This document shows, piece after piece, positions 7,641 to 8,952 of a stretch of 8,952 bases of DNA (the first letter of the stretch is position 1; each line of letters starts with the position of its first letter). Source of the DNA: a virus (lineage: Duplodnaviria > Heunggongvirae > Uroviricota > Caudoviricetes); IMG/VR virus record IMGVR_UViG_2627854008_000013; one strand, written 5' to 3'. Under the pieces are notes generated by a model. That model saw only the letters and a program-made list of their open reading frames with translations, was not told the origin of the DNA and made no database searches. A program made the position numbers and the translations under genes.

Positions 7641-8128
7641 TAAGCCCCCACGTAATTCCCTGACAGATACCACTCATCACCCGATACAGCGCGCTTACTG
7701 CTTTTCCGTAAACACTGCTCACGACGCGCCAGAAAATTGTTTCGTTCTGGCTGGGAGTGGCTTTCACGGAATGCCGCCATCCACACCGTTGCAGCACGAC
7801 GGTATAAGCCCCTGGACTCCAGTTCTTCCGCCTGGCGGGTCAGGCACAAAATCTCCCGCGGGTCGTTAGTGCCGACATAGAAATTGCGCACAGGTCTGGT
7901 TTCACGAACTGGTTGCGGTTCCGCCTCCTGCGCTCTCTCAGTCAGGCGCGGGAAATGTCTGCGTGTATCCCCTTCACAACGGTGAGCCACACGACCACTC
8001 TGACGTAATTTGCTTGCTGACTGCAGAACGCACTGCCGTGAGTAACCTGCAAAAGCATCCGCAATGTCTCCGGAAGTACACCCCGGATGGGCTTCAATGA
8101 ATTTCTGAACTTCATTCAAAAGACTCAT
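7640..8128 (-). CDS. Phage protein with C-terminal PerC-like motif (162 aa from ATG 8126-8128)
   Basis: C-terminal segment LESRGLYRRAATVWMAAFRESHSQPERNNFLARREQCL resembles the PerC/Pch signature as I recall it (LEAKGLWRRAATRW...). G-rich SD (GGGGGGG) before the ATG, which overlaps the stop of the truncated upstream gene (ATGA). The ORF-track extension to 8305 runs into the IS and uses rare codons. Confidence 0.55.
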   Translation of the reverse strand: MSLLNEVQKFIEAHPGCTSGDIADAFAGYSRQCVLQSASKLRQSGRVAHRCEGDTRRHFPRLTERAQEAEPQPVRETRPVRNFYVGTNDPREILCLTRQAEELESRGLYRRAATVWMAAFRESHSQPERNNFLARREQCLRKSSKRAVSGDEWYLSGNYVGA

Positions 8129-8290
8129 AATCCCCCCCTGAATCCTGCCGGGATCTGGCTGTAGTCCACGTTGTCGTAACTGGCTTTGAAGTACGGGTCC
8201 TCGCGTCTGGCTGCAGATACCGCAGGAACTTCCCAGGATTCTTCGAAATGACGATCTGGACCAAAGAACGTGACAGCCTGTTTCACAAAT
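8125..8290 (-). pseudogene. 3' remnant (54 codons + TGA) of a phage gene truncated by the IS insertion
   Basis: Minus-strand frame reading FVKQAVTFFGPDRHFEESWEVPAVSAARREDPYFKASYDNVDYSQIPAGFRGGL* has E. coli-like codon usage, ends in ATGA overlap with the next gene, and begins exactly at the IS terminus (8290/8291) with no start codon. Confidence 0.5.
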
Positions 8291-8952
8291 TGAAGTGGTC
8301 AACAAAAACTGGCCACCGAGTTAGAGTTTTTCCAGTATCGATTTTCCGATTCGTTTGGGGGTAACCCACCGTTATATTCGTGCGGTCTTAGTGCGCTGTA
8401 ATATCCAACGATATAGTCCGTTATGGCGTGAGCTGCCTCGCTGAAGCTTACGTAACCCACCACCGGCATCCATTCGTTCTTCAGACTCCTGAAGAAGCGT
8501 TCCATTGGGCTGTTATCCCAGCAGTTTCCGCGCCGGCTCATACTCTGTCTGATCTGGTATCGCCACAATAACTGCCGGAACTGCCTGCTCGTATAATGAC
8601 TGCCCTGATCGCTGTGGAACATCACCCCGCCGGGCTTACCACGGGTTTCCCATGCCATTTCCAGCGCTTTCATGGTGAGCCTGCTGTCCGGCGAGAACGA
8701 CATGGCCCAGCCCACTGGTTTTCTTGCGAACAGGTCGAGAACAACGGCGAGGTACGCCCAGCGCTTACCCGTCCAGATACAGGTCACATCACCGCACCAC
8801 ACCTGATTTGGCTCGGTCACGGCGAACTGCCTTTCAAGGTAGTTAGGGATAGCAACATGTTCATGACCACCACGTTTATACCGGTGAGTCGGCTGCTGAC
8901 AGCTGACCAGCCCCAGCTCTTTCATGAGCCTGCCAGCAAGCCAGCGTCCCAT
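8291..8952 (-). mobile_element. IS3-family insertion sequence, right-hand portion (IS911-like terminal repeat); continues beyond window
   Basis: Terminus TGAAGTGGTCAACAAAAACTGGCCACCGAG at 8291-8320 starts with the IS3-family TG end and matches my recollection of an IS911 inverted repeat. It contains the end of a DDE transposase ORF whose stop lies inside the terminal repeat. Confidence 0.75.
8299..8952 (-). CDS. IS3-family transposase OrfB (DDE integrase core), N-terminally incomplete at window edge
   Basis: Translation contains the DDE region: WCGDVTCIW ... [10 protein letters not shown] ... [19 protein letters not shown]. Stop TGA at 8299-8301. Confidence 0.85.

Follow-up and report, generated by a model that had tools for sequence, protein, structure and literature searches.

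A phage replication gene reduced to its tail beside a resident IS911 copy in a Shigella boydii-type prophage remnant

Simple insertion is the commonest IS event, and in the case of IS911 it leaves a direct target duplication of 3 bp (rarely 4 bp). A retained IS, a junction at its exact tip and no duplication are the classical signature of an adjacent deletion. Such deletions are frequent among IS3-family elements, arise without target duplications and grow stepwise (PMC11708052). In the E. coli LTEE, all 14 of the 14 IS150 deletion events were adjacent and without target duplication (PMC11708052), and the part of PMC9943667 that cites Kusumoto 2011 gives IS629-adjacent deletions a span from a few nucleotides to more than 40 kb. 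On the phage side, the gene concerned here has described counterparts in SfV orf39 and mEp460 gp43 (PHROG 270 and 26426; HTH_36 and DnaD_N-like N-terminus), which likewise lie immediately before the perC-like orf40 and dam.

We analyzed a window of 8,952 nucleotides (IMG/VR record IMGVR_UViG_2627854008_000013), which is best explained as what remains of a decayed lambdoid (SfV/Stx-phage-like) prophage beside yecN in a chromosome of Shigella boydii type. In this window the end of an IS abuts a short open frame, and according to the original prediction the IS had inserted into an intact phage gene. We compared the window with relatives, found by searching public assemblies for the exact PerC protein. 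This gave ten Shigella sequences, either chromosomes or large contigs, of which S. boydii CDC 3083-94 (CP001063) is one; they share one gene order, and the best-matching one, UAUR01000006.1 (here L005), served as reference for the deletion coordinates. Another contig, AMKA01000074.1 (here L039; 92.5 kb, assembly GCA_000815705.1), has the arrangement of the window itself.

The element is the right-hand 662 bp of an IS911 (IS3 family) on the minus strand at 8291..8952, as judged from its identity to annotated copies and its rve domain. Thousands of copies annotated as "IS3-like element IS911" in complete E. coli genomes are 99.4-99.8% identical to positions 8291-8952, and the matches end at about 8291. 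IS911 was defined by more than 95% nucleotide identity, ends of the form 5'-TG...CA-3' and a DDE (rve) transposase encoded as orfA and orfB; identity, termini and transposase genes were all found. The window covers just the orfB part, seen as a mechanical ORF of 217 aa (8952-8299, minus strand; Pfam rve/rve_3) that is the 3' part of orfB, and orfA was read in the copy of L005 and L039, to which the window's portion is 100% identical. In that copy the orfA product (100 aa) is assigned to HTH_Tnp_1 and the orfB product (217 aa) to rve/rve_3. The final bases of IS911, ...GGCCAGTTTTTGTTGACCACTTCA on the minus strand, form the right inverted repeat, which reads TGAAGTGGTCAACAAAAACTGGCCACC; the tip, ...GTTGACCACTTCA on the minus strand, corresponds to TGAAGTGG on the plus strand, at 8291. 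Up to ...CCACTTCA, the window and its closest relatives share one sequence, and from the next base on they differ, so the boundary lies between 8291 and 8290. An IS3-family element ending at 8291 had been predicted, on the understanding that the boundary might lie elsewhere, and on this point the prediction was right.

The remnant of the replication-initiation gene occupies 8125..8290 on the minus strand and comprises the third base of codon 220, codons 221-274 and the stop TGA. Its open frame runs from 8289 to 8128 with 54 sense codons (FVKQAV...AGFRGGL), exactly as had been predicted, and is free of ATG; the sole mechanical start is a GTG at 8286, and at 8301-8299, only a few bases into the IS, there is a stop. 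The predicted ATGA overlap with the next gene was also found, formed by the TGA at 8127-8125 and the ATG of perC at 8128-8126. The original prediction had left room for a chance frame and had asked for a homologue search with the 54-residue tail. This search returned full-length matches: SfV Orf39 ("replication protein", 272 aa) shares 52 of 52 residues with the tail at its C-terminus, and the 274-aa S. boydii allele ends with the same 54 residues. The 54 codons alone also match phrog_26426 (E = 4e-21) and phrog_270 (E = 2e-10) in PHROG, both at the C-terminal end of the profile, and the C-terminal homology that defines the SfV Orf39 type is thus present. Phages SfV and mEp460 carry homologous DNA (97-98% identity), which in them forms the 3' end of the replication gene (SfV orf39, mEp460 gp43); after it come a PerC-family gene, dam, rusA, KilA-N, a DUF968/HNH gene and Q. 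The tail therefore belongs to a real phage gene, and its guessed origin in the early or replication region is borne out by the HTH_36/DnaD_N domain (N-terminal winged-helix, DNA-binding), which Pfam places at residues 17-85 of the intact 274-aa protein. Residues 221-274 have no match in Pfam, and the N-terminal HTH_36/DnaD_N domain is wholly gone from the window. What is left is a pseudogene fragment without domain, native start or ribosome-binding site, and it is not a functional replication initiator.

At the position of the SfV stop codon TGA the window has GGA. This change gives the last two codons (GL), a run of seven G and the ATGA overlap with perC, and it is older than the truncation because the intact S. 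boydii alleles carry it as well. The G7 run (8132..8138, minus strand) is a purine-rich, Shine-Dalgarno-like stretch just upstream of the perC ATG. Among related Shigella assemblies it is either G7 or G6, and this difference changes the called C-terminus of the replication protein (274 versus 278 aa); the cause may be genuine slippage or an error in sequencing the homopolymer.

All ten relatives have an intact replication gene, with a product of 274 or 278 aa. They also all have this IS911, oriented alike and joined to yecN at the same left junction, but 997 bp further upstream. In these genomes IS911 abuts GTTGGCAAAAG..., followed by orf38 and the intact replication gene, and the ancestral right junction reads CCACTTCA|GTTGGCAAAAGCC. 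When the reverse-complemented window was aligned with L005, two blocks were obtained, each 100.000% identical: bases 1-662 correspond to L005 8180-8841 (IS911), and bases 661-8952 to L005 9837-18128. The sole difference is the absence of 997 bp (L005 8842-9838), starting exactly at the IS911 tip. In window coordinates the deletion junction is 8290..8291, with the tip base at 8291, the first phage base at 8290 and the fully identical blocks on both sides. The CA that closes IS911 recurs at the phage breakpoint, which makes the junction ambiguous by 2 nt. The missing 997 bp hold the last 117 bp of the antirepressor (Rha) gene, the 74-aa orf38 and codons 1-220 of the replication gene.

A sequence at the deletion endpoint, AGCGGCACAC--AATTTG (L005 9828-9843; window ~8290-8285 plus deleted DNA), resembles the IS911 left inverted repeat AGTGGCACACTGAATTTG and is the best local match in a region of 1.26 kb. 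We considered it as a surrogate transposase site and rejected it, since 26% of shuffled sequences reach its score and the junction is not at its tip.

The history of this IS911 copy goes further back. At the left end of the relatives' loci the chromosomal order is yecM, cutC, torY, torZ, cmoB, cmoA and yecN', the last being interrupted by IS911, and in L005 (7593-8841) the resident element joins the 5'-truncated yecN to the 3' end of the phage antirepressor gene. The resident copy is flanked by AGC on the left and GTT on the right. As this is not a target duplication, the copy was already a rearrangement junction before the event seen in the window. We searched the relatives' loci for the integrase, repressor and cro side and found none of it; everything from attL to the antirepressor gene is gone, and an earlier IS-associated deletion removed this left arm in the L005-type relatives. 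The gene yecN adjoins yecE, an integration site of Stx phages. On its late side the remnant ends at IS3-, IS66- and IS110-family elements. The prophage was thus already a remnant before the window's event and could not replicate or excise as a phage. Two expected consequences of the predicted insertion fall away for the same reason: that it may make the prophage defective is moot, because the relatives already lack the integrase, repressor and cro side, and the native upstream context was not removed by it, since in all relatives IS911 already separates yecN' from the antirepressor gene.

The window ends inside the IS, and its far side is read from L039, which has 0 mismatches to the window over the 3013 nt of their overlap. 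The left junction in L039 is that of the relatives (yecN' ...CGCAAGC|TGAAGTGG), its right junction reads CCACTTCA|ATTTGTGAAACAGG, and over the 1538 nt of yecN' plus complete IS911 it is 100% identical to L005. This one draft contig thus has the structure yecN'-IS911-'rep tail-perC; it crosses a 1.25-kb repeat and would look the same if two IS911 copies had been collapsed in assembly. The other half of the gene, as a simple insertion would leave it, is not found beyond the IS there; instead, L039 shares with the ten relatives the same IS, orientation and left junction, and both L039 and the window lack DNA from the exact tip on. The other IS end had been sought with a target duplication of 3-4 bp, and the flanks in L039 are AGC and ATT, with no duplication. 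With AGC/ATT in L039 and AGC/GTT in the relatives, the copy is a rearrangement junction and not a simple insertion. The original claim of an insertion into an intact gene is accordingly not upheld: the relatives carry the same IS911 997 bp upstream of the window's junction and have an intact replication gene, and yecN' lies beyond the IS in L039.

The exact junction GTTGACCACTTCAATTTGTGAAACAGGCTG is absent from GTDB species-representative genomes, from IMG/VR and from the first 12 loci, and none of the complete E. coli genomes spans the window's junction. A simple insertion would leave residues 1-221 of the replication protein, with their end at that point or with four codons of the left inverted repeat attached; neither product occurs in a collection of 15 billion proteins that includes GCA_000815705.1. 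In the same collection the intact 274-aa protein occurs on 173 contigs, named Shigella boydii.

Other alleles of this IS911 copy were also noticed, among them two kinds of excision scar. In L036 (~530-560) and L030 the element is lost except for 10 nt of its left inverted repeat, and the sites read ACGCAAGC+TGAAGTGGCA+AAAGCC with TGGCA as microhomology. In L042 (~535-550) it is wholly lost with a 1-nt overlap, and the site reads ACGCAAG|TTGGCAAAAG. These scars suggest that this IS copy was excised imprecisely on independent occasions. In L006 (CP049281.1, ~8790-8870) the right tip of IS911 carries a 26-nt tandem duplication (GTGGCCAGTTTTTGTTGACCACTTCA twice), and orfA and orfB are called there as one fused product of 389 aa, either real or an assembly artefact.

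We favor, at a probability of about 0.7, the reading that the replication gene was truncated by a deletion growing directly out of the resident IS911. The element was resident at the left edge of the remnant, where it would have joined truncated yecN to the 3' end of the antirepressor gene, and the window's lineage would then have lost a further 997 bp immediately to its right. The event was probably initiated by transposase, with the 3' end of the right inverted repeat engaging nearby DNA in cis; the replication gene would thereby have been cut to its 54-codon tail and IS911 itself retained. This reading rests on the relatives, which hold the same IS upstream, and on L039, which has yecN' beyond the IS. 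It is further supported by the absence of the simple-insertion products from the protein collection and by the excision scars of the same IS copy. The kept IS, the exact-tip junction and the lack of a duplication together form the signature of an adjacent deletion. The 2-nt CA overlap fits either strand transfer by transposase or a microhomology-guided join.

The same end sequence (yecN'-IS911-'rep tail, with unmatched flanks and an IS equal to the resident copy) would result if a second IS911 had inserted at codon 220/221 in the orientation of the resident one and homologous recombination between the two had removed one IS and the 997 bp. The end products of the two routes are indistinguishable. 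ATT beside the tip is an acceptable 3-bp IS911 target, and where target duplications are missing, recombination between IS copies is one of the two frequent reasons (PMC11708052). This route needs two events, the first of them within 1 kb of the resident copy and in its orientation. Such a placement would be a rare coincidence, whereas an adjacent deletion lies next to an existing copy by definition. Its two-IS intermediate was seen in none of the 25 contigs read, and the truncated products predicted for that intermediate are absent from the protein collection. Insertion followed by recombination fits the sequence equally well but is less parsimonious than a direct adjacent deletion, and we regard it as rather unlikely. 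We consider a fresh simple insertion very improbable, with the front of the replication gene beyond the window and two IS911 copies collapsed in the draft contig. It is compatible with the window taken alone, it would be the commonest kind of event, and AMKA01000074.1 is indeed a draft contig across a repeat. It predicts the left-end junction ...GGCACACAATT|TGAAGTGGCACAC, or ...GGCACACAATT(T)|TGAAGTGGCACAC; ...CACAATT|TGAAGTGG. What stands to the left of the IS in AMKA01000074.1 is yecN' and not the front of the replication gene, in a stretch 100% identical to the relatives. A fresh insertion would leave unexplained why position and orientation coincide with those of the resident copy, and the N-terminal fusion products expected with a duplication of 3 or 4 bp do not occur in the protein collection, of which this assembly is part.

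It is also conceivable that transposase took no part, the 997 bp being lost by replication slippage or end-joining on the CA, or that an IEE-type primase-polymerase acted with the IS911 transposase. The 2-nt CA overlap at the junction would suit such events, and microhomologies of 5 nt (TGGCA) and 1 nt occur in the two excision scars of this IS copy, which resemble described IEE products with IS3-family elements (PMC9943667, bioRxiv 10.1101/2023.06.07.543989). A transposase-independent event has no reason to stop precisely at the IS tip, and IEE in vitro did not extend substrates with a 2-nt microhomology (bioRxiv 10.1101/2023.06.07.543989). In a search for IEE homologues the best 120 clusters were all named E. 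coli and none Shigella, and our literature search returned no paper tying IEE to S. boydii, which would count somewhat against IEE. We hold events of this kind to be extremely unlikely.

The IS911 copy has three kinds of allele within one S. boydii clade: the exact-tip adjacent deletion, the excision leaving 10 nt of the left inverted repeat (TGGCA) and the excision of the whole IS. We put forward, with considerable doubt, that they make up a natural record of an "insertion-deletion-excision" pathway. If this were true with an IEE-like activity or another host factor, IS excision would actively shape Shigella genome reduction, and excision could fuse the perC-dam-Q block to chromosomal transcription.

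Downstream of the tail, every gene of the region is on the minus strand. The gene perC (7640..8128) is intact and encodes a PerC-family transcriptional activator of 162 aa (PF06069, E = 1e-9; phrog_1324); it now lies 163 bp from the IS911 tip, and purine-rich GGGGGGGATT precedes its ATG. Its stop is overlapped by the start of dam (6987..7640), also intact, which encodes a phage Dam-type N6-adenine methyltransferase of 217 aa (PF05869), and rusA (6601..6990) follows with a RusA Holliday-junction resolvase of 129 aa (PF05866). The rest of the prophage remnant (1..6581) was annotated by transfer of the L005 gene table, with window position = 18129 - L005 position. It contains KilA-N (6581-5772), DUF968/HNH (5764-4775), antiterminator Q (4757-4377), an N6_N4 methyltransferase (3813-2764), DUF1737 (1962-1729) and a NanS-like esterase (1695-1), all on the minus strand. 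The original prediction had called the downstream genes a nin block; they form in fact an SfV-like block (perC, dam, rusA, KilA-N, DUF968, Q) and are not the lambda nin genes. The perC-dam-rusA...Q block is intact and has its own ribosome-binding stretch.

Three tRNAs on the minus strand (2714-2465), namely Arg-tct (2465-2541), Arg-tcg (2556-2632) and one with a CAT anticodon (2639-2714), and a match to the STnc100 sRNA (2185-2389, minus strand; 139.5 bits) sit between the N6_N4 methyltransferase and the DUF1737 and NanS-like genes. We take this tRNA, STnc100 and NanS-like arrangement to be the late-region layout of Stx phages, in which toxin genes would be expected in the gap at 1963-2464. 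No gene is called or annotated in that gap. A 327-bp gene that SfV and mEp460 carry between dam and rusA (orf42, annotated as a transcriptional repressor) is missing from the window and the Shigella relatives, in which dam overlaps rusA directly; this difference is ordinary lambdoid mosaicism.

Upstream of its start, the perC frame has no stop across the replication-gene tail as far as a TTG at 8305 in the right inverted repeat of IS911, giving a mechanical ORF of 221 aa (7640-8305, minus strand) in overlap with the true frame of the tail. Neither this extended frame nor the 53-aa ORF from the GTG, the two junction-specific products, is on record as a called gene. A scan of 7900-8500 for promoter-like and terminator-like sites found none. 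We also considered a hybrid outward promoter made of a -35 (TTGACC) in the right inverted repeat and the new flank, and rejected it: the scan was empty, and on visual inspection no -10 candidate spaced at 16-18 nt matches in more than 2 of 6 positions. As no promoter-like site lies between the orfB stop and perC, transcription from upstream would reach perC only as read-through from IS911.

The phenomenon itself is already known: it is ordinary IS-mediated decay of a cryptic Shigella prophage. For annotation, the 54-codon frame should be treated as a replication-gene fragment (pseudogene) and not as a gene, and IS911 as a rearrangement junction. That an IS abuts the tail of a gene is no proof of insertion at that site; close relatives can reveal a resident IS with a neighbouring deletion. 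For Shigella biology the locus is a further instance of IS-driven erosion in a cryptic prophage already unable to replicate, and its significance beyond annotation is little.

Compared with the replication gene of SfV and mEp460, the window retains residues 221-274 only and has its stop two codons further downstream; the 2 nt that separate this gene from perC in both phages are replaced by the ATGA overlap. IEE-promoted excision and flanking deletion in EHEC give a similar mix of alleles, with imprecise microhomology excisions and adjacent deletion. Unlike those cases, the window's junction lies at the exact tip with an overlap of 2 nt only, and no Shigella-named cluster is among the best 120 IEE homologues. 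With the adjacent deletions of IS3-family elements (IS150 in the LTEE, IS3 and IS629 in E. coli, and the intramolecular transposition of IS911) the locus shares the retained IS, the exact-tip junction and the lack of a target duplication, and here too a relative has the same IS at the same site with the neighbouring DNA still there. Unlike the experimental cases, it comes from a natural isolate, for which we infer the ancestor-descendant relation from the relatives and likewise the role of the transposase. The window's deletion enlarges one that had already occurred at this IS end, which matches the stepwise growth described in PMC11708052. The IS-laden cryptic prophages of Shigella have the same pattern, a remnant between IS911 and IS3-, IS66- and IS110-family elements with the integrase and immunity arm missing; from these the locus has no notable difference and is one more example.
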